From positions 33,030 to 97,029 of the forward strand of contig JBJHCF010000015.1 of the NCBI GenBank assembly GCA_050506795.1: a stretch of 64,000 nt of DNA, given 5' to 3'. Shown here one piece after another: positions 1-7,340 of the stretch; position 1 is the first letter of the stretch, and each line of letters begins with the position of its first letter. The notes under the pieces are model-generated. The model searched no databases. It saw only the letters and a list, made by a program, of their open reading frames with translations, and was not told the origin of the DNA. The DNA is from Opitutia bacterium (GTDB lineage: Bacteria > Verrucomicrobiota > Verrucomicrobiia > Opitutales > T3Sed10-336). The position numbers were made by a program, and so were the translations under genes.

Positions 1-86
1 TCGACCATTTCACGCACAATCTCAGCGTCTTCGGCTAAGAGAATGGTTTTATCGCGACTGGCGTGTTTTTTGGCTGCTGCATTCAT
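1..86 (-). CDS. Response regulator receiver-domain protein, N-terminal part (runs off the window)
   Basis: Manual translation MNAAAKKHASRDKTILLAEDAEIVREMV; ILLAED is a typical receiver beta1/acidic pocket. Confidence 0.7.
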   Translation of the reverse strand, partial: MNAAAKKHASRDKTILLAEDAEIVREMV

Positions 87-246
87 TGGCTCTGTCAGGC
101 AAACCTTGGAGGGAATGAGGAGCGTGACGATGTTAAACTTGGATCAATTAACAAATTAATTACACAATCGCGGGTCAATTCGATTTGAATTGTTTCTTCA
201 AATCACTTTCGGTGTCCGGTCCTGATGCCGCCCATTGCATCCCGCC

Positions 247-2214
247 TCAGCGCGGCGGTCCGTTGCCGGCAACGTATTGATCGTGGAGGATCTGTATGCC
301 CAGCAAGTGATTGAGAAGGGCGTCCTTGCGGGTGAGCGAAACGGAATCGGTGTCGGCTTCGTACTCTTTCATGAAACTTTCGATTTTCGCGGGATCCAGG
401 AGGCCCGCTTCCTCCACCTTTTCCCGGCAAAGGTAGAGATCGGTGAGTTTGGCCAAAGCCGTTTGCTTCTTCTTTTCCGTGTGGCCGGGAGGCGCCATAA
501 AGGCGAATTTCTCCCGTTTATAAAGCACCTCTGGGAGGACGCCTTTCATGGCTTCACGCAGAACCCACTTTTCAATATTGCCTTGGATGCGTAAACCGGG
601 GGGGACCTGCACCGCCGCTTCGGCCACGTGGTGGTCGAGGAAGGCGGGGCGGGATTCCATGGAATTGGCCATGTCGACCCGGTCTCCACCCCAGTTGAGG
701 ATTTGCCCCTCCAACATCGTTTTGCTCCAGGTGTATTGGGCGATGTCGAGCGGGTGCCTGCCCTCGATCTGGGAGGGGTTCAGGGTTGCGGCGATGGCGT
801 CGATGGGATCGTAGTCGCCGATCTCCTCCAGCGCTCCGCGGCTCAGCAGGGGACGGGCCAACTCCAGCGTGGCCATCCAGGGCTGAATCCACGACGGCGT
901 GAAGCCGCAAAGCTCGTCGAACGAGGGGTGGTGGGCCTGGACCTCCGCCAGAATGGCCCCCTTGAAAATCCGGTTGCTCTTTTCCAGCGCCCGGTGGAAG
1001 GACTCCACCACCTCGGGGGGTTCGTCCTTGAGGCCGTGCATGAACATGTCGCGTTTGAACGACGGGTAGCCTCCGAAAAGTTCGTCGGCCCCTTCTCCGG
1101 TCACCACGCTCTTATAACCGGCCTCGCGCACGTGACGGCTCATGCAGAACTTGGCCACCCCCAGAGTATTGTAGAAGGTCCGTTCCGCGTGGTACATGGT
1201 GCGGAGGTAATTGTCGCCGTAAAGATCCTCCGCATTCAGGCGAATGAGGTCCTGCTCGGCGTTCATGCTTTCCGCCATTTGGGTCGCGATGACGGCCTCA
1301 TCGTAATCGTCGCTGTCGAAACTGATGGTGAAGGCTTTGACCGGGGCCTGCTGGGCGCCGCTGGCCAGGCCGAGAATCGAACAGCTGTCGATACCGCCGG
1401 AGAGGTAACAACCCACGGGGACATCGGCTTCCAGGCGAAAGGTGACGGATTTGACCAACTCTTCGCGAATGCGCAGAATGTGTTCTTCCGGCGTAATCGC
1501 CGTGTCGCGCTCCTCGGGGAGCGGAAAATTCATATCCCAGTAGCATTGGTCCTCGATTTCCAGGCGTCCGTTCCGGCGCTGGACAATCAGCATGTGTCCG
1601 GGACGCAGGGCCTGGATGCCTTCGAAGGCGCTGGTTCCCGGCACCATGGTGTGCATGAGTTGGTGCAGGGCGGCTTTGCGGTCGAGTTTGCAGGGAACTT
1701 CGGGGTGCGCCAGCAGGGACTTGACCTCGGAGCCGTAGAATAGAGCGCCATCCTGTACGTGATAAAAAAGCGGCCGTACGCCAAAGCGATCCCGCACGAG
1801 AATCATGCGGTCCCGGGCCTGGTCGTAGAGGACGAAGGCGAACTCACCGCGCAGCTTGTGCACGAAGTCCAATCCCATGCGCTGGTAATAGTGTATGGCG
1901 ATCTCGCTGTCCGAGCGGGTGCGGAAACGCGCGCCGTCCGCCATCAGCGAAGCCCGGTGACGCTTGTAGTCGTAGAACTCCCCGTTGGCCGTGAGTACGA
2001 TCTCGCCGGAGTGCGAGCACATCGGCTGGCTGCCGGTGTGCAGGTCAATGATGGTGAGCCGGGCGTGGCCCAGGGCGAGACCGCGTTCGGCGTCGATATG
2101 CATGCCGGTGCCGTCGGGACCGCGGTGGTGAATCGATTTCACCATCGCCTGTAATTCCTGCTCCGCCCCGGCGTCGAGGCCCTTTGCTTTCCAGAATCCG
2201 GTTATTCCGCACAT
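247..2214 (-). CDS. asnB: Asparagine synthase (glutamine-hydrolysing) family amidotransferase
   Basis: Starts MCGITG (Ntn Cys2); HRGPD, RDRFGVRPLFY and LSGGIDS motifs; start set at ATG 2214. Confidence 0.92.
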   Translation of the reverse strand: MCGITGFWKAKGLDAGAEQELQAMVKSIHHRGPDGTGMHIDAERGLALGHARLTIIDLHTGSQPMCSHSGEIVLTANGEFYDYKRHRASLMADGARFRTRSDSEIAIHYYQRMGLDFVHKLRGEFAFVLYDQARDRMILVRDRFGVRPLFYHVQDGALFYGSEVKSLLAHPEVPCKLDRKAALHQLMHTMVPGTSAFEGIQALRPGHMLIVQRRNGRLEIEDQCYWDMNFPLPEERDTAITPEEHILRIREELVKSVTFRLEADVPVGCYLSGGIDSCSILGLASGAQQAPVKAFTISFDSDDYDEAVIATQMAESMNAEQDLIRLNAEDLYGDNYLRTMYHAERTFYNTLGVAKFCMSRHVREAGYKSVVTGEGADELFGGYPSFKRDMFMHGLKDEPPEVVESFHRALEKSNRIFKGAILAEVQAHHPSFDELCGFTPSWIQPWMATLELARPLLSRGALEEIGDYDPIDAIAATLNPSQIEGRHPLDIAQYTWSKTMLEGQILNWGGDRVDMANSMESRPAFLDHHVAEAAVQVPPGLRIQGNIEKWVLREAMKGVLPEVLYKREKFAFMAPPGHTEKKKQTALAKLTDLYLCREKVEEAGLLDPAKIESFMKEYEADTDSVSLTRKDALLNHLLGIQILHDQYVAGNGPPR

Positions 2215-2304
2215 TTGATCAAAATAATTGAGTTCAGTCGCCGGTGCCAAGCTTCCTCTGGAACTCGGGGGCCGGCGATTTCGGGTGAATTCGGTTGAAA
2301 CGGA

Positions 2305-3429
2305 TCAGCTCAGCGGAATGCCGTCGGGCAGCCGGTCGAAGCGGTCAAAGACCGCGGTGAGAAGCGCCTGCCGCACGAACACCGCCCCGTGGGCCTGCGC
2401 GAAGTAAAGGTTGTGGTTGGTGTCATCGAGGCTGGTATCCAGCTCGGTGAGACGCGCAAGCGGGTGCATGATGACCGCCTCCTTTTTCAGCTGACTTGTC
2501 CCGTCAAGTTTGTTTTGGCTGTCCAGGGTGTGATAACTGCCACCGAGGTGGGCGATGGAATTGAGATATATCACGTCCAGATCGGAAACCAGTTCGCCGA
2601 TGGAATTGGACTCGTTGAACTCGATGCCGGCGGCCTCGATATCGTGTCTCAGTTCCGGTCCGAGGGGATCGGCCATTTCCGAAATGACGCTGATGCGGCG
2701 GAAATTCTCCTCGAAAAGAAGCGACATGAGCAGGAAGCTCTTGACCGCGCGCATGCTGCCCGGGGTGCCCATGATGCCCAGATGGAGGCCGCCGTTACGT
2801 TTTCTTCCCTTGGCGTCGGCCAGTGCCGGGTTCCATTTGAGCAGTGCGTACCAGTCGGCCAGGGCCTGGGTGGGGTGTTCGCCCGAGCCGTTGCCCGCGT
2901 TGATCAGCGGGATACGCAGGTTCTTGCGAATGAGGTCGAGCGAATCGGTTTCGGTGTGACGCATGATCACGAGGTCGCCGTAGGCATTGAACATCTCGCC
3001 GATATCGCCCAGCGATTCGCCTTTCTTGACCCCGGTGATGGCGGCGTCCGGGATACTGATGATCTTTCCGTCGAGCCGTAGAGTGGCGCTTTCAAAAGAG
3101 GTCCGGGTGCGGGTGCTGGCTTCGAAGAAGGCGGTAATCACGATCTTGCCGTCCAGCAAATGGTAGGGCGCGATCTCCATCACTTCCAACAATGCGGCGA
3201 AACGGCACAGTTCAACCACCGTTTTGCGGTCGAAGTCCTTAACCGAAAGAATGGATTTTCCACTGAGATTCCGCAGGATCTTGAGGTCGATCGGCCGGTC
3301 GCCGAGCAGGTGCCTCGGGTCGGGTCTCAGGGTTTGGGAATCGGCGGGCGGTTCCAGTGCTTTGGTGCTTTGATTGGCCGGAAGGATGGAACCTGTCGCG
3401 GCGGATTTTCTGGTGACGTTTTTTTTCAT
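2305..3429 (-). CDS. Aspartate/ornithine carbamoyltransferase family protein, non-canonical PyrB-like
   Basis: FFEASTRT, KKGES, MRH, HPTQ and HPL motifs; lacks the ATCase R-x-Q motif. Confidence 0.88.
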   Translation of the reverse strand: MKKNVTRKSAATGSILPANQSTKALEPPADSQTLRPDPRHLLGDRPIDLKILRNLSGKSILSVKDFDRKTVVELCRFAALLEVMEIAPYHLLDGKIVITAFFEASTRTRTSFESATLRLDGKIISIPDAAITGVKKGESLGDIGEMFNAYGDLVIMRHTETDSLDLIRKNLRIPLINAGNGSGEHPTQALADWYALLKWNPALADAKGRKRNGGLHLGIMGTPGSMRAVKSFLLMSLLFEENFRRISVISEMADPLGPELRHDIEAAGIEFNESNSIGELVSDLDVIYLNSIAHLGGSYHTLDSQNKLDGTSQLKKEAVIMHPLARLTELDTSLDDTNHNLYFAQAHGAVFVRQALLTAVFDRFDRLPDGIPLS

Positions 3430-3512
3430 CAGGATGCTGAAAATAAAATTGGTGCCATGTTAAATGGTGTTGAAGGTCGATGGTTCCGGATTTCCCTGGC
3501 CGGGACGGAGGT

Positions 3513-3638
3513 TTACCAGATCTGTTTGCGCAGATAGTCGACCAGAATCATCAGGAGCAGGATGAGGGCCGCGAGTCCGGTTAAGACCAGTGATCCGATA
3601 ATTAAAAGCTGCAGCACGGGAGCGGGATAGTAGATCAT
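3513..3638 (-). CDS. Small single-TM membrane protein (41 aa)
   Basis: MIYYPAPVLQLLIIGSLVLTGLAALILLLMILVDYLRKQIW; its ATG overlaps the symporter TGA (ATGA). Confidence 0.7.
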   Translation of the reverse strand: MIYYPAPVLQLLIIGSLVLTGLAALILLLMILVDYLRKQIW

Positions 3639-5104
3639 TGCAGAGTCCCTTTCCTGAGTTCTTCGTTGGATTCGTTCAGCCTGGCCCAATCGAAATCATG
3701 GGGCCACGTGAGCGTACTGAACAAGGTGATGGTCATGGAAACGGCCGCCCCCACGAGCGCGCCCGAATACCAGCCGATTCCGAAATAGGCCCAGAGGCCA
3801 AGGCCGCTTCCCAGGACCATTGCGGCAATCACGCCCCAGGGATTGGTTTTTCGCCAGAACAGCCCGGCCGCCACCGGCCAGATCACCGCCCCGACCAGCG
3901 GGCCGGCGGCGAAGAGGAGTTGGGCCAGGGTCGCTTCGAAGACTGTGATGTTGAGGATACAGACCAGCCAGGTGGCGAATCCGAGACCCGCGATTATGAC
4001 GATGGATGCGGTGCGGAGATGGCGTTCGCCGGGCTGGGATGCGATTCCCTTGCGGTAAATGTCTTCCGTGATCAGGTCGGAGGTGGCGGCCAGCAGACTG
4101 TCTATGCTGGAGGCCAGAGAGCAGAAGAGGACGATAAAAATAATCACCGCGCCGGCCGCACCGAGCACCTCGCTGGCCGCCAGGGGGCCGAGCATGTCGG
4201 GTCGCGGCAGGTTGATGCCGAGCGAATCGCTGGAGAGCGCGACGAATCCTACCGCGATGGGGATGGGCAGCCAAAAGAGGCCGCCCAGCAGGTAGGCCTT
4301 GAACGCGACCCCCTTTCGCATGGCAAAGGCCCGGCTCCACCAGACGTTGTTATGAAAGATCTCTCCGAAACCGAAGAGCATGTTGTTGAAAAAGGCGATG
4401 ATCGCCGCCGGCAAAAGCACGTAGAGCAGGGCGGGTTGGTCGGCCATGACCGTGGTGTAAGTCGCGTCGAAATCGATGCGGTGGTAGATCACCGCGCCCA
4501 CGATTACCACGCCGACCAGAATGATGATACTTTGAATGAAGTCGGTGCCGATGACCGCATAAAGTCCGCCAAAGAGGGTGTAGAGCACACAGACCAGCAA
4601 GATAACGGTCATGCCGAGCGGAATCGGAATCCCCGCCACGGCATTCATTAGCAAGCCTCCCGCCATGGCCATGGTCAACAGCCAGGCGAAACTGTAGAAG
4701 AGAGAAATCAAGAGAAAGATCACCCAGGCCAATCGACCGAACCGCAGGCGAATGAAATCGCCGCTGGTTAATCCATTGGGCATGATGCGGCGGATACGGC
4801 GGGCCATGGGCGCGAAGAGAAACAGACCGAAGCAGGCGGTGGAGTACCCGAGCATGCCCCAGACGCCCAGTTCCAGTGCGAATTGCGGCGCCAGCATGGT
4901 GGTGTTCGAGGTGATCCAGGTCGCCATTGCGGTGGCGGCTCCGAGGGCCAGGCCCACGTTGCGTCCGGCCACCATGTAACCGTCCATGTTCTTCGCCTTC
5001 CGGCCCCACAGGACGCCCAGGAACACCCAGAGTACGCCCAGTGCGCCCAGCAACACCCAGCCGGTTTGCGTGGAAAGGACCGCGGTTTCATGGCCGGCGT
5101 TCAT
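3635..5104 (-). CDS. Sodium:solute symporter family protein (urea/proline transporter-like)
   Basis: Multi-TM; YMVAGRNVG, YTLFGGLYAVIGTDFIQ, SSIDSLL; ATGA overlap with upstream gene. Confidence 0.9.
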   Translation of the reverse strand: MNAGHETAVLSTQTGWVLLGALGVLWVFLGVLWGRKAKNMDGYMVAGRNVGLALGAATAMATWITSNTTMLAPQFALELGVWGMLGYSTACFGLFLFAPMARRIRRIMPNGLTSGDFIRLRFGRLAWVIFLLISLFYSFAWLLTMAMAGGLLMNAVAGIPIPLGMTVILLVCVLYTLFGGLYAVIGTDFIQSIIILVGVVIVGAVIYHRIDFDATYTTVMADQPALLYVLLPAAIIAFFNNMLFGFGEIFHNNVWWSRAFAMRKGVAFKAYLLGGLFWLPIPIAVGFVALSSDSLGINLPRPDMLGPLAASEVLGAAGAVIIFIVLFCSLASSIDSLLAATSDLITEDIYRKGIASQPGERHLRTASIVIIAGLGFATWLVCILNITVFEATLAQLLFAAGPLVGAVIWPVAAGLFWRKTNPWGVIAAMVLGSGLGLWAYFGIGWYSGALVGAAVSMTITLFSTLTWPHDFDWARLNESNEELRKGTLQ

Positions 5105-5793
5105 GACGAATTCTCCTCTTCTCGCGCTTCCTCGCGGTCTTTGCGGCTGCCCGCCACCACGAGGACCAGGGTCGCCAGGACCACGATTCCGCCAATGGCG
5201 AACAACAGAATCGCGTCCCGCATTGATTGATACGTTATCCGGACCTGCAGCGGACGACTCCATTCGCCCGGCGGTCCGTCGTCAACCGCCGCGCGGACGC
5301 GGAAGTAAACCTCCCCTTCCGGCAGACCTCCCCGAAACGAAGTCCGATCCTGTCCTTCGTAAAGGGTTCGGGCCTCGCTGAAATCGGCAGACGCGGATTG
5401 TTGGAGCGTAAAGATCCTAATCTGGCCGTCGGGGGTTTCCTCCTCCCCGTCGATAGACCAGGACAGGCTGACGTGGGGAACGTTGGTTTCCATGACATCG
5501 ACCACGGTTCCGTCGACCTCGGCTTCGCCGGGTTCGTCGATCCCAAAAACGGCCCGGGGCCCCTGCGTTTCGTCCGCCGCGAGGGGAAACCTTGGGATCA
5601 CGGTCAGGCAAAGGATCAAGGCGCAGGTCGCAAGGCGTTGCGGGAGGGGGCGGGGGTAGGGGCTTCGGCCGCCCCCGGAAGGCTGCGGACGGTATTCCAC
5701 TTTGGCGTTGAACGTTGCGTTGGAAAAAAAGATGGACGGGCTCCTTTCAGCGTACGAGAGAACAGGAAACAGAATTGTGCCGAAAAGTAACAC
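5101..5793 (-). CDS. Exported FN3-like domain protein with C-terminal TM helix (start uncertain)
   Basis: Signal-like stretch; VSLSW...GLPEGEVYFRVRA...GEWS fibronectin-III pattern; hydrophobic C-terminus; coupled to the symporter. Confidence 0.65.
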   Translation of the reverse strand: MLLFGTILFPVLSYAERSPSIFFSNATFNAKVEYRPQPSGGGRSPYPRPLPQRLATCALILCLTVIPRFPLAADETQGPRAVFGIDEPGEAEVDGTVVDVMETNVPHVSLSWSIDGEEETPDGQIRIFTLQQSASADFSEARTLYEGQDRTSFRGGLPEGEVYFRVRAAVDDGPPGEWSRPLQVRITYQSMRDAILLFAIGGIVVLATLVLVVAGSRKDREEAREEENSS

Positions 5794-5987
5794 CTTATGC
5801 CACGAACCGGAGACCGGTTCAACCGAAAACTGCAGGGAGGCTCCTGCGGGGGGGGTCGTGCGGCGCCGTTGAGCCGAGGGTATAGGCAGACGAAACGAGC
5901 GGACTCAAGGCCGAAGCAAACCGTTGAAATCAAATACGTTCTGTTGCCAGCACGGACGAGGAAGGGGGGCGGTTTCCGGTGTGAAGT

Positions 5988-7340
5988 TCAGTCCTCCGAT
6001 CGGACCGGGAGGTCGCCGTCGGCGAATTGATTGATCAGTCGGGTTCCCGGTGAGATTCCCTCCCGGCGCGACAGCGGGACGCCGTTTTCGTCGCGTACCA
6101 GAACGAATCCGCGCTGGAGAACGGAATCCGGCCCCAGGGTTTGCAGTCGTTTTCCGAGGTGAATCATTTTTTCGCGCCGGGCGGGAAGTTCGGTGGCCAT
6201 GAGGCGTTCGAAGCGGGCCCGCAGAGCGGAATAGCTCGCCACCGCCAGATTAAGGCGATGGGAGGGCAACGATTGATCGAATCGCGACCGCAGTTCCGCG
6301 GTCAGGCTCTTTTTCTCCCAGAGAACCGCTTTGGCGCCCGCATGCAGGCGGTTTGCCAGGTCGTCCAGACGCAAGTACCCGTTTTCGATCCGGTTTACCG
6401 GGGAAACGCTCTGCAGGCGGTGGTGCAGCAGTTTCAATTCGCGTGCGCACGTTTCGAGGCGAAGGTCGACCTTTTCCCGCAGCCGGTCACGCGCCGCGGC
6501 CAGGCGGTCACGGCATTCGATGAAACCGCTGGAAATCACTTCCGCCGCGGCGGAGGGGGTTTCCGCCCGCAGGTCGGCCGCGAAATCACAAAGAGTGAAG
6601 TCGATTTCGTGCCCGACCGCGGAAACCACGGGCAGGGGACAGGCCGCCACCGCGCGAGCCAGGATTTCCTCGTTGAAGGGCCAAAGGTCCTCCAGGCTAC
6701 CTCCTCCTCGACCGATCACCAGGGCGTCGAGAAAAGGCAGACTGGCCGCGTATTTCAACATGGAGACCATCTCGGCGGCCGCTTCCGCCCCCTGGACCCG
6801 TACCGGCATCAGGATGAGGCGTCCCCACCATCCGCGCCGTTTCAGGATTCGCAGGAAATCCTGGGCCGCCGCGCCGGTAGGGGAGGTGATGAATCCGACT
6901 GTGGACGGAATCTTGGGGATGGGGCGTTTGTTGGCAGAATCGAAAAGCCCTTCCGCCGCCAGTTTCCTTTTGAGGCGCTCGAATTCCATCTGCAAGCGCC
7001 CCTGACCGTCCTCCTGCAATTGCCGGACGATGAGTTGGTAGGCGCCCCGCGGTTCGTACACGTTCACCGCTCCCTGTGCCAGAACCTGTATTCCGTCGCG
7101 CAGCGTCGCCCCGGTTCGGGCCGCGTCGCCCCGAAATAAAACGCAGGGAAGCTGACTGCCCGCGTCCTTGAGCGAGAAATAGCAGTGCCCGCTGCTTTGC
7201 CGTCGAAAATTCGAAATCTCCCCCCGCACCCACACCTCCGGCAAGGACGTTTCCAGGAGCGCCTTGATGCGCCGGGTAAACTCCGTAATGGTCAGCGGGC
7301 GATCCGTGGTGTCGGTTGGCAGGTAAAAGTCGGTAGGCAT
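5988..7340 (-). CDS. xseA: Exodeoxyribonuclease VII large subunit
   Basis: VWVRGEISNF, GHCYFSLKD, RGGGSLEDLWPFN, GHEIDFTL, ETPSAAAE. Confidence 0.96.
   Translation of the reverse strand: MPTDFYLPTDTTDRPLTITEFTRRIKALLETSLPEVWVRGEISNFRRQSSGHCYFSLKDAGSQLPCVLFRGDAARTGATLRDGIQVLAQGAVNVYEPRGAYQLIVRQLQEDGQGRLQMEFERLKRKLAAEGLFDSANKRPIPKIPSTVGFITSPTGAAAQDFLRILKRRGWWGRLILMPVRVQGAEAAAEMVSMLKYAASLPFLDALVIGRGGGSLEDLWPFNEEILARAVAACPLPVVSAVGHEIDFTLCDFAADLRAETPSAAAEVISSGFIECRDRLAAARDRLREKVDLRLETCARELKLLHHRLQSVSPVNRIENGYLRLDDLANRLHAGAKAVLWEKKSLTAELRSRFDQSLPSHRLNLAVASYSALRARFERLMATELPARREKMIHLGKRLQTLGPDSVLQRGFVLVRDENGVPLSRREGISPGTRLINQFADGDLPVRSED

Follow-up and report, generated by a model that had tools for sequence, protein, structure and literature searches.

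We describe a cassette of five genes at the start of a 64,000-nucleotide (nt) stretch of DNA from an Opitutia bacterium (assembly GCA_050506795.1, contig JBJHCF010000015.1, positions 33,030 to 97,029 of the forward strand; "the window" is this whole stretch). The genes are co-oriented minus-strand open reading frames (ORFs) at window positions 247-5793, and for brevity we call their products FN3-TM (a membrane protein with a fibronectin-III fold), SSS (a transporter), the 41-aa (amino acid) peptide, CT (a carbamoyltransferase resembling aspartate carbamoyltransferase, ATCase), and AsnB (an amidotransferase). We conclude that the cassette is a real, widespread, and undescribed module in which enzymes of known kinds have a new specificity and the transporter has a new architecture. 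What the module may do is a more tentative matter; the reading we prefer, synthesis, uptake, and recycling of an N-carbamoyl amino-acid amide, is weighed below against its rivals.

5101..5793, minus strand: FN3-TM protein, 230 codons (ORF and predicted fold)
3635..5104, minus strand: SSS-family transporter, 489 aa (PF00474, DUR3 lineage)
3513..3638, minus strand: 41-aa microprotein with a single transmembrane (TM) helix (ORF; homologs lie between SSS and CT)
2305..3429, minus strand: ATCase-like N-carbamoyltransferase (CT), 374 aa (PF02729 and PF00185)
247..2214, minus strand: AsnB-family glutamine-dependent amidotransferase, 655 aa from MCGITGFW (PF00733 and GATase_7)

The original prediction, made from the letters alone, had described five co-oriented genes of which the first three are joined by ATGA overlaps. 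All five are present on the minus strand, and both overlaps can be read directly in the sequence (tcATGAac where the FN3-TM stop meets the SSS start, caATGAtc where the SSS stop meets the peptide start); gaps of 83 nt and 90 nt precede CT and AsnB. SSS most likely starts at the ATG at 5104 (MNAGHE), and AsnB most likely at 2214 (MCGITGFW) rather than at an upstream TTG at 2250; the start codon of FN3-TM is uncertain.

Conservation of gene order

A scan of one genome per species gave 203 confirmed CT places, of which the best 80 were kept as loci; these are labelled Verrucomicrobiota, Bacteroidota, Calditrichia, Acidobacteriota, and Gemmatimonadota. SSS lies upstream of CT in 79 of the 80 loci, the sole miss being a contig that starts at CT; AsnB lies downstream of CT in 78, both misses being contigs that end 9 and 184 nt after CT, and two of the loci with AsnB downstream carry an insertion of about 3 kb. 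FN3-TM could be found upstream of SSS by tblastn in 67 of the 80 loci; locus L005 has no upstream DNA, and of the 12 other misses 9 are cut by the start of the contig and 1 was recovered by clustering. Because the same order recurs in 78 to 79 of 80 loci, the association of these genes is far beyond chance. More distant relatives from metagenomes, with CTs only 42-45% identical, keep the order small ORF-SSS-CT-AsnB between unrelated flanks. Thus the linkage of transporter, CT, and AsnB, on which the original prediction leaned, holds across loci labelled as five phyla and even at this lower level of CT identity.

The distribution of the cassette is sparse, a CT ortholog being found in 4 of 400 other sampled genomes of the phylum, yet CT identity between phyla is 60-70%; the two together suggest an accessory unit spread by horizontal transfer. 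By label, the carriers include cultured type strains (Haloferula luteola, Haloferula sargassicola, Luteolibacter marinus, Reichenbachiella agariperforans, Flexithrix dorotheae, Chitinophaga japonensis, and Pelagicoccus spp.), and our reading of the cassette is therefore directly testable.

The carbamoyltransferase

CT matches both PF02729 (117.8 bits, gathering score 29.9) and PF00185 (35.3 bits, gathering score 29.4), phmmer matches it to the solved 2rgw (E 1.7e-42), and the top Foldseek matches of its predicted model (pTM 0.81) are ATCases (E ~1e-20). CT, having both Pfam domains and the ATCase fold, belongs to the ATCase/ornithine carbamoyltransferase (OTCase) superfamily. The model is of low confidence in the loop at 292-299 (pLDDT <50), which carries the substitutions discussed below, and in residues 1-32.

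The original prediction had further claimed that CT retains the carbamoyl-phosphate residues but carries YLNSIAH and HPLAR in place of the motifs that hold aspartate, and alignment with solved ATCases bears this out on both counts. STRTR, KGES of the 80s loop, MRH, HPTQ, and the Arg of the G-R-T-V-H-S segment are all kept; YLNSIAH aligns to YVTRIQKE of the M. jannaschii ATCase and HPLAR to HPLPR, so that the window CT reads Y-L-N-S-I-A-H-L-G where ATCases read Y-x-T-R-x-Q-x-E-R. In the E. coli ATCase numbering, Arg229 and Gln231 (the lost R and Q) bind the β-carboxylate of aspartate, Arg167 (kept) binds its α-carboxylate, and Lys84 (kept) belongs to the 80s loop. An alignment of 20 CTs indicates that these are properties of the family: STRTR, K-G-E-S, M-R-H, HPTQ, the aligned α-carboxylate Arg, and N-S-I are all invariant, N-S-I-[AT] is found in every member, and HPLAR is found in 19 of 20 with HPLSR in the remaining one. 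Since the carbamoyl-phosphate motifs and the aligned Arg are invariant in 20 of 20, CT looks catalytically competent.

CT residues 1-57 include a conserved N-terminal extension of about 55 residues (L-x-P-N ... L-E-P-P-x-D-S-x-T-L-R-P-x-P) which is absent from ATCases and of which residues 1-32 are modelled as disordered.

Family models place CT outside the named enzymes. It scores below the ATCase cut-offs of TIGR00670 (172.4 vs 236.95), NF002032 (165.9 vs 263), and NF006046 (132 vs 512), and no OTCase, putrescine carbamoyltransferase (PTCase), or YgeW model gives it more than 81.5 bits. Of five features by which ATCase membership was judged CT shows one, the carbamoyl-phosphate site, and lacks four. 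A word-indexed search, in which 8000 candidates were scored, returned 7269 matches at E<=1e-10; among the best 120 of these 7269, identities are 63-91%, lengths are 340-384 aa, and the source annotations read hypothetical or aspartate carbamoyltransferase. An exhaustive search of representatives clustered at 50% identity gave 139 matches at E<=1e-30, the nearest being one full-length protein at 56% identity and six at 41-47%, after which come ordinary ATCases at about 35%. Tabulating the motifs of 121 sequences showed Y-x-N-[SAV]-[IL] in the cassette CTs and in 8 near representatives, together with HPLAR where that stretch is present; most of the others show the canonical Y-x-T-R-x-Q-x-E-R and HPLPR. 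A FastTree phylogeny, a quick tree with a long outgroup branch from which we use only the grouping, unites the cassette CTs in one clade (SH-like support 97), joins them to the near relatives (89) and then to a degenerate group (99), and leaves 87 other sequences, including this genome's own PyrB, outside these groups.

The degenerate group deserves mention in its own right. It comprises 13 representatives of 354-374 aa (P0139, P0140, P0141, P0150, P0153, P0155, P0160, P0162, P0175, P0177, P0217, P0264, and P0269; one is labelled Gammaproteobacteria) with broken carbamoyl-phosphate motifs (e.g. SSRTR, NPTH, LRT; no K-G-E-S), and on the tree it is sister to the cassette CT lineage (support 99). 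These ATCase-like proteins may be pseudoenzymes or may perform a different chemistry. The protein atlas shows unnamed ATCase-like clusters of 352-365 aa that are similar to CT, in Pseudomonadota and Myxococcota.

A separate pyrB and argF

The genome, which is 97.8% complete, holds three OTCace_N genes: a canonical pyrB, an argF, and the window CT. The pyrB lies on another contig, encodes 321 aa with RIQHER and HPGP, and lies between ORFs that resemble, by eye only, pyrR and dihydroorotase; the argF-type protein has SMG and HCLP. CT is thus not the sole pyrB of the genome, in keeping with the original prediction of a non-aspartate enzyme, and we conclude that it is not the pyrimidine enzyme. 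Nor are there any pyr genes among those flanking the cassette, the flanks being unrelated to pyrimidine synthesis as had been noted from the letters.

Catabolic transcarbamylases typically adjoin a carbamate kinase, according to excerpts of a 2018 review (PMC6022934). A carbamate kinase model (TIGR00746) finds no match in this 97.8%-complete genome, and no such gene is among the conserved neighbors of the cassette; by the criterion in those excerpts, the missing kinase indicates that CT probably runs in the anabolic direction.

The amidotransferase

AsnB matches PF00733 (266 bits) and GATase_7 (130.8 bits), has the N-terminal Cys nucleophile (MCGITG) and an SGGIDS PP-loop, and passes TIGR01536 (405.2 vs a cut-off of 267.1). 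It belongs to none of the named AsnB subfamilies: the E. coli-type model NF006949 gives 266.5 (cut-off 499) in three separate stretches; the highest specific model, that of the XrtA/PEP-CTERM system amidotransferase, gives 373.9 bits over the full length (cut-off 816.9); and the best solved relative is a hydroxyamidotransferase, 7ylz. The original prediction had pointed to the AsnB-like enzyme that amidates the osmolyte N-acetylglutaminylglutamine amide (NAGGN), and this likeness proved to be nothing special, as the NAGGN amidotransferase model TIGR03104 scores 280.4 against a cut-off of 570.1, covers residues 13-398 only, and is outscored by the XrtA-type model. Since 62 of 65 full-length orthologs start with MCG[IV], we regard AsnB, on its motifs, as a true amidotransferase. 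Of the three Asn_synthase matches in the genome, that of AsnB is the best.

Two cassette orthologs lack the glutaminase Cys (L010 5442-7367, which starts MGGIAG, and L080 9088-11055, which starts MSGIAG) and may use free ammonia. Elsewhere in this genome, two tandem AsnB paralogs (open frames of 650 and 656 aa at G000:C12:62089-65171) have much lower Asn_synthase scores than the cassette gene. We also considered, and rejected, a ribosomally synthesized and post-translationally modified peptide (RiPP) system in which the 41-aa peptide is the precursor and AsnB a lasso-type cyclase: the peptide, a conserved TM helix, is docked on SSS in the predictions given below, AsnB keeps its glutaminase Cys, and AsnB reaches 176 with the lasso-cyclase model, whose cut-off is 525.

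A proposed three-part transporter

SSS matches PF00474 over the full profile (76.7 bits, gathering score 22.8) and falls below all NCBIfam cut-offs (TIGR00813, 132.2 vs 184). Its best solved relative is the plant urea/H+ symporter AtDUR3 (9j7c, 119 bits, E 2.2e-33), followed at some distance by the sialic-acid-type SiaT-like 5nv9 (45 bits). Excerpts of the AtDUR3 study (PMC11840088) list nine urea-site residues tested by mutation (W93, W95, T98, Y117, Q124, N305, Y315, W338, and Y461) and three proposed proton residues (D312, E402, and H222). Mapped by one pairwise alignment at low identity, the window SSS keeps four of these nine (W93, T98, Y117, and W338) as well as P342 and P474, also named there, and changes the other five (W95 to T, Q124 to G, N305 to G, Y315 to W, and Y461 to L) and all three listed proton residues (D312 to N, E402 to L, and H222 to Q). 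The five residues of SSS that stand at the changed urea-site positions, T65, G93, G245, W255, and L337, do not vary in any of 30 family members. This pattern would fit an enlarged urea-type pocket and a different coupling ion; SSS may recognize something urea-like, and we propose it as a candidate importer of a ureido compound. Of the original description of SSS as a Na+ symporter, the family assignment stands, and the generic symporter gives way to a DUR3 relative with two conserved accessory subunits.

The 41-aa peptide (MIYYPAP...DYLRKQIW) belongs to no Pfam family. All 73 loci that hold both gene ends have a homolog between SSS and CT, 39-43 aa long, hydrophobic, and ending in W (70 of the 73 ORFs passed the hydrophobicity filter, and the other 3 are visibly of the same family); L27, D34, and W41 are invariant in an alignment of 27 peptides. 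Complex prediction for SSS and the peptide scores 0.83, the best of 3 controls scoring 0.00, and the runs agree in at least 99% of contacts with partner pLDDT at least 85. Of 157 solved complexes 116 attain that mark, as do 2 of 215 mismatched pairs, counts that are only a rough guide here because custom alignments were used. The prediction supports binding of the peptide, a proposed small subunit of the transporter, to SSS.

FN3-TM has no Pfam or NCBIfam match, not even to the Pfam FN3 models, and its original label is vindicated by the fold: the AlphaFold2 model (mean pLDDT 80) runs from a hydrophobic N-terminal helix (52-64) through a β-sandwich (81-186) to a C-terminal TM helix (191-229), which a short charged tail follows, and Foldseek ranks fibronectin type III domains at the top of its matches (best E 2.4e-5, probability 1.00; 68 matches at E<=0.001). 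Synteny and translational coupling suggest that FN3-TM is an accessory transporter subunit with an extracytoplasmic domain.

Hydrolases that accompany the cassette

Clustering of neighboring genes revealed that M20 peptidase-family and isochorismatase-family proteins accompany the cassette. With this genome's orthologs as queries, M20 is found within 8 kb of the cassette in 30 of the 80 loci, the isochorismatase in 26, and both in 25; where at least 4 kb is available on both sides, 24 of 45 loci hold M20. The M20 protein neighboring the cassette in locus L083, to which this genome's M20 protein is 59% identical, passes the hydantoinase/carbamoylase model TIGR01879 (374.7 vs 204) and NF006771 (496.6 vs 399), and reaches 375 bits, below the cut-off of 520, with the model for the N-carbamoyl-L-glutamate amidohydrolase ErtE. 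The isochorismatase member scores far below the cut-offs for BiuH (63.6 vs 370) and RutB (45.2 vs 378).

Among the 400 sampled genomes, an M20 ortholog (57-58% identity; other matches at most 38%) occurs in exactly the four that bear CT, and an isochorismatase ortholog (56-66% identity; other matches at most 40%) occurs in the same four, both genes lying within about 5 kb of CT; these four genomes are mutually related, and we claim no statistic for the co-occurrence. In the genome of the window, both orthologs lie at unlinked loci in unrelated contexts. Judged by their families, the M20 hydrolase and the isochorismatase-type amidase would carry out the reverse chemistry of CT and AsnB, which favors a ureido-amide as the compound in question.

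Two further proteins were seen in these neighborhoods. One, of 965 aa, matches no Pfam family and has a weak M20 carbamoylase-like region (~380-775); it is encoded in three Bacteroidota loci (L036 9074-11971, L046, and L042), either in between CT and AsnB or immediately upstream of the cassette, and may stand in there for the M20 hydrolase. The other, of about 295 aa and matched by neither Pfam nor NCBIfam, adjoins M20 in six loci (L027, L034, L037, L038, L044, and L065; cluster c8, e.g. L044 10181-11068).

Proposed function

We think it nearly an even chance that the cassette is a module for the synthesis, uptake, and recycling of an N-carbamoyl amino-acid amide, and suggest the following scheme: i) CT would carbamoylate the α-amino group of an amino acid with a free α-carboxylate and no acidic side chain (Gln, Asn, and other neutral amino acids are candidates), since the α-carboxylate Arg and the 80s-loop Lys are kept and the β-carboxylate ligands lost; ii) AsnB would amidate a carboxyl, using ATP and glutamine-derived ammonia, to give an uncharged, nitrogen-rich N-carbamoyl amino-acid amide, and the same kept and lost residues of CT imply that amidation would follow carbamoylation or fall on another carboxyl; iii) the DUR3-lineage SSS, FN3-TM, and the 41-aa peptide would form a three-subunit complex that imports the product or a precursor; and iv) in about half of the carriers (in this genome from unlinked loci) the isochorismatase-type amidase and the M20 hydrolase would dismantle the compound. 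Its use would most likely be as a compatible solute and/or a recyclable nitrogen store. An N-carbamoyl amino-acid amide is the simplest compound to propose because CT and AsnB, the reverse hydrolases, and the urea-lineage transporter would all touch it.

The original prediction had held that a non-aspartate CT and AsnB make such an amide with a dedicated transporter. The separate pyrB, the conserved linkage, and the hydrolase partners all speak for this; the product, the direction of the CT reaction, the acceptor, the site of amidation, the substrate of the transporter, and the physiological role as an osmolyte are what we infer. The fuller claim would be that the cassette is the unassigned route to N-carbamoyl amino-acid amides, the solute class of N-α-carbamoyl-glutamine 1-amide, with a new acceptor specificity on the ATCase scaffold, a new AsnB subfamily, a three-subunit DUR3-derived ureide transporter, and an amidase/carbamoylase recycling pair, spread horizontally through at least five phyla; that much we regard as possible but rather doubtful. 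Ectothiorhodospira marismortui is reported, with others, to make carbamoyl-glutamine amide. In the literature we found no genes named for this compound, no microbial pathway for carbamoyl-asparagine, no link between a carbamoyltransferase plus amidotransferase and an N-carbamoyl osmolyte, and, in main texts, no published description of the cassette.

Several observations weigh against the amide module. CT and AsnB are linked no more tightly to each other than to the transporter, which fits import of an exogenous substrate at least as well as synthesis de novo, and as well as re-uptake of the product. Of five carriers of other phyla examined for the hydrolases, the Acidobacteriota genome holds both, the Calditrichia genome M20 only, and the three Bacteroidota genomes an ortholog of neither. 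Where the hydrolases are present, about half of the loci place them immediately after CT and AsnB in the same orientation; if co-transcribed, they would create a futile cycle unless the four enzymes form one linear route. Soil and freshwater genera are among the carriers by label (Chitinophaga, Anseongella, Haliscomenobacter), so that habitat does not imply an osmolyte role. The synthetase domain of an AsnB-family enzyme could adenylate something other than a carboxylate, the proposed CT pocket depends on motifs in a loop (292-299) modelled at pLDDT <50, and the comparison of SSS with AtDUR3 depends on a single low-identity alignment. A search of the genome for other osmolyte genes (no match to Glyco_transf_20; two BCCT transporters) is too weak to weigh on the osmolyte role in either direction.

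The likeliest of the alternatives is that an exogenous ureido or amide compound is taken up and then converted or salvaged. The DUR3-like complex would import it and all four enzymes would work on it or on derivatives of it, with CT either working phosphorolytically to recover carbamoyl phosphate or modifying an imported amino compound together with AsnB. The transporter, which is of the urea-symporter lineage, is the most constant partner of CT and AsnB and is encoded within the translationally coupled first three genes; MarR-type regulators adjoin the cassette in 18 loci; the hydrolases are often co-oriented with CT and AsnB; and the spread is patchy (4 of 400 sampled relatives), as is usual for accessory nutrient modules. 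Yet an amidotransferase that consumes ATP and glutamine has no obvious catabolic place, a phosphorolytic CT would be redundant with a hydrolytic carbamoylase, no carbamate kinase was found in the genome, and it is the hydrolases that are missing from some carriers, CT and AsnB never. We therefore consider salvage unlikely, though by no means negligible. Housekeeping, with CT a second aspartate carbamoyltransferase and AsnB the asparagine synthetase of the cell, side by side by chance, would agree with the annotation of the CT family by several sources and with AsnB passing TIGR01536 as the best Asn_synthase match in the genome; given the canonical pyrB elsewhere, the replacement of the aspartate ligands in every CT family member, the CT scores below ATCase cut-offs, the absence of the family from 396 of 400 sampled relatives, and a gene order conserved across loci labelled as five phyla, we think it almost certainly wrong.

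Two other chemistries can be imagined for the pair of enzymes. PP-loop ATP pyrophosphatases activate ureido-type carbonyls, as in the logic of argininosuccinate synthetase or GMP synthetase, and by this chemical argument AsnB might adenylate the ureido oxygen of the CT product, rather than a carboxylate, and add glutamine-derived ammonia to yield a guanidino compound. Such two-step guanidinylation would suit an AsnB that lies outside the named subfamilies and whose best solved relative, the hydroxyamidotransferase 7ylz, illustrates how varied the chemistry of the family can be, but it has no known precedent in the AsnB family proper, the amidase and N-carbamoyl hydrolase partners suit an amide or ureido product better, and neither a guanidine riboswitch nor any other Rfam element was found in the regions scanned (window 1-6500 and 8 related loci); we hold it very improbable. 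Modification of the envelope or an exopolysaccharide, with AsnB amidating and CT carbamoylating a surface polymer precursor, would account for the XrtA/PEP-CTERM amidotransferase being the highest specific model for AsnB, and seems to us scarcely credible: that score is far below its cut-off, no conserved glycosyltransferase, flippase, or exosortase adjoins the cassette, and the partners that do are an importer and small-molecule hydrolases.

Flanking genes and regulatory elements

Upstream, the cassette is flanked by genes for the exonuclease VII large subunit, acetyl-CoA synthetase, and ComEC; downstream come a single-domain response regulator and then convergent genes. The response regulator is CheY-like (L004 11700-12116, minus strand), and ends at window position 86, with 160 nt separating it from asnB, which is on the same strand; in a few Bacteroidota loci, too, the cassette has two-component genes at its flanks. 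An IS630-type transposase with DDE_3 and HTH domains (L004 4701-5732, minus strand) lies about 6 kb to the left of the window start.

A riboswitch or RNA leader for the cassette was considered and rejected: an Rfam scan of window positions 1-6500 at E<=1 gave as its sole hit a chance-level sRNA inside asnB, and 8 related loci scanned at the gathering score gave only tRNA and tmRNA. A scan for promoters and terminators returned counts that did not stand out from those of shuffled sequences.

Comparison with known systems

CT shares with the ATCase catalytic chain (PyrB; ATC II or E. coli-archaeal type) the fold, the carbamoyl-phosphate motifs, the aligned α-carboxylate Arg, and the 80s-loop Lys; it differs in having S-I-A for R-x-Q, HPLAR for HPLP, and the N-terminal extension of about 55 residues, in lacking pyr linkage, and in coexisting with a true pyrB. 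An altered second-substrate motif on a conserved carbamoyl-phosphate domain is also what CT shares with the non-canonical transcarbamylases (acetyl- and succinyl-ornithine, putrescine, diaminopropionate, diaminobutyrate, and ureidoglycine transcarbamylases, and YgeW), where, in the excerpted review (PMC6022934), such a change marks a new acceptor. Those of known lineage in these excerpts are OTCase-like or knotted, whereas CT branches on the ATCase side and alone has an AsnB enzyme as its partner. The acceptors listed there as of 2018 are aspartate, ornithine and its derivatives, canaline, diaminopropionate, diaminobutyrate, putrescine, ureidoglycine, and possibly oxamate, and these excerpts include neither a neutral α-amino acid acceptor nor an AsnB-paired enzyme. 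If our reading is correct, the ATCase branch, for which the same excerpts give aspartate as the sole acceptor, would gain a new acceptor class through CT, and hundreds of such genes would no longer be misannotated as pyrB or asnB.

The NAGGN system is encoded by a gene trio of acetyltransferase/ligase, AsnB-type amidotransferase, and hydrolase. The cassette would follow the same logic: in each case a member of the AsnB family amidates an amino acid or peptide whose amino group is blocked, both charges are thereby masked, and the synthetic genes come with one for a hydrolase. The solute chemistry is covered in PMC1224877. The cassette differs in that the N-blocking enzyme is a transcarbamylase, not an acetyltransferase/ligase, and in that a three-part transporter is integral to it. 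These would be the first genes for a ureido-amide solute. The hydrolases likewise belong to known families, the hydantoinase/carbamoylase M20 amidases and the isochorismatase amidases (BiuH, RutB, N-carbamoylsarcosine amidase), and form orthologous groups of their own which track the cassette.

DUR3 is the nearest solved relative of SSS, and W93, T98, Y117, W338, P342, and P474 are common to both. SSS is shorter (489 vs 704 aa), has five urea-site and three proton residues changed among those named in the excerpts of PMC11840088, and is accompanied by FN3-TM and the 41-aa subunit. Judged on these residues and partners, SSS is of the DUR3 lineage but not a DUR3, and, if the proposed complex is real, it would be a bacterial DUR3-type transporter with two obligatory small subunits.

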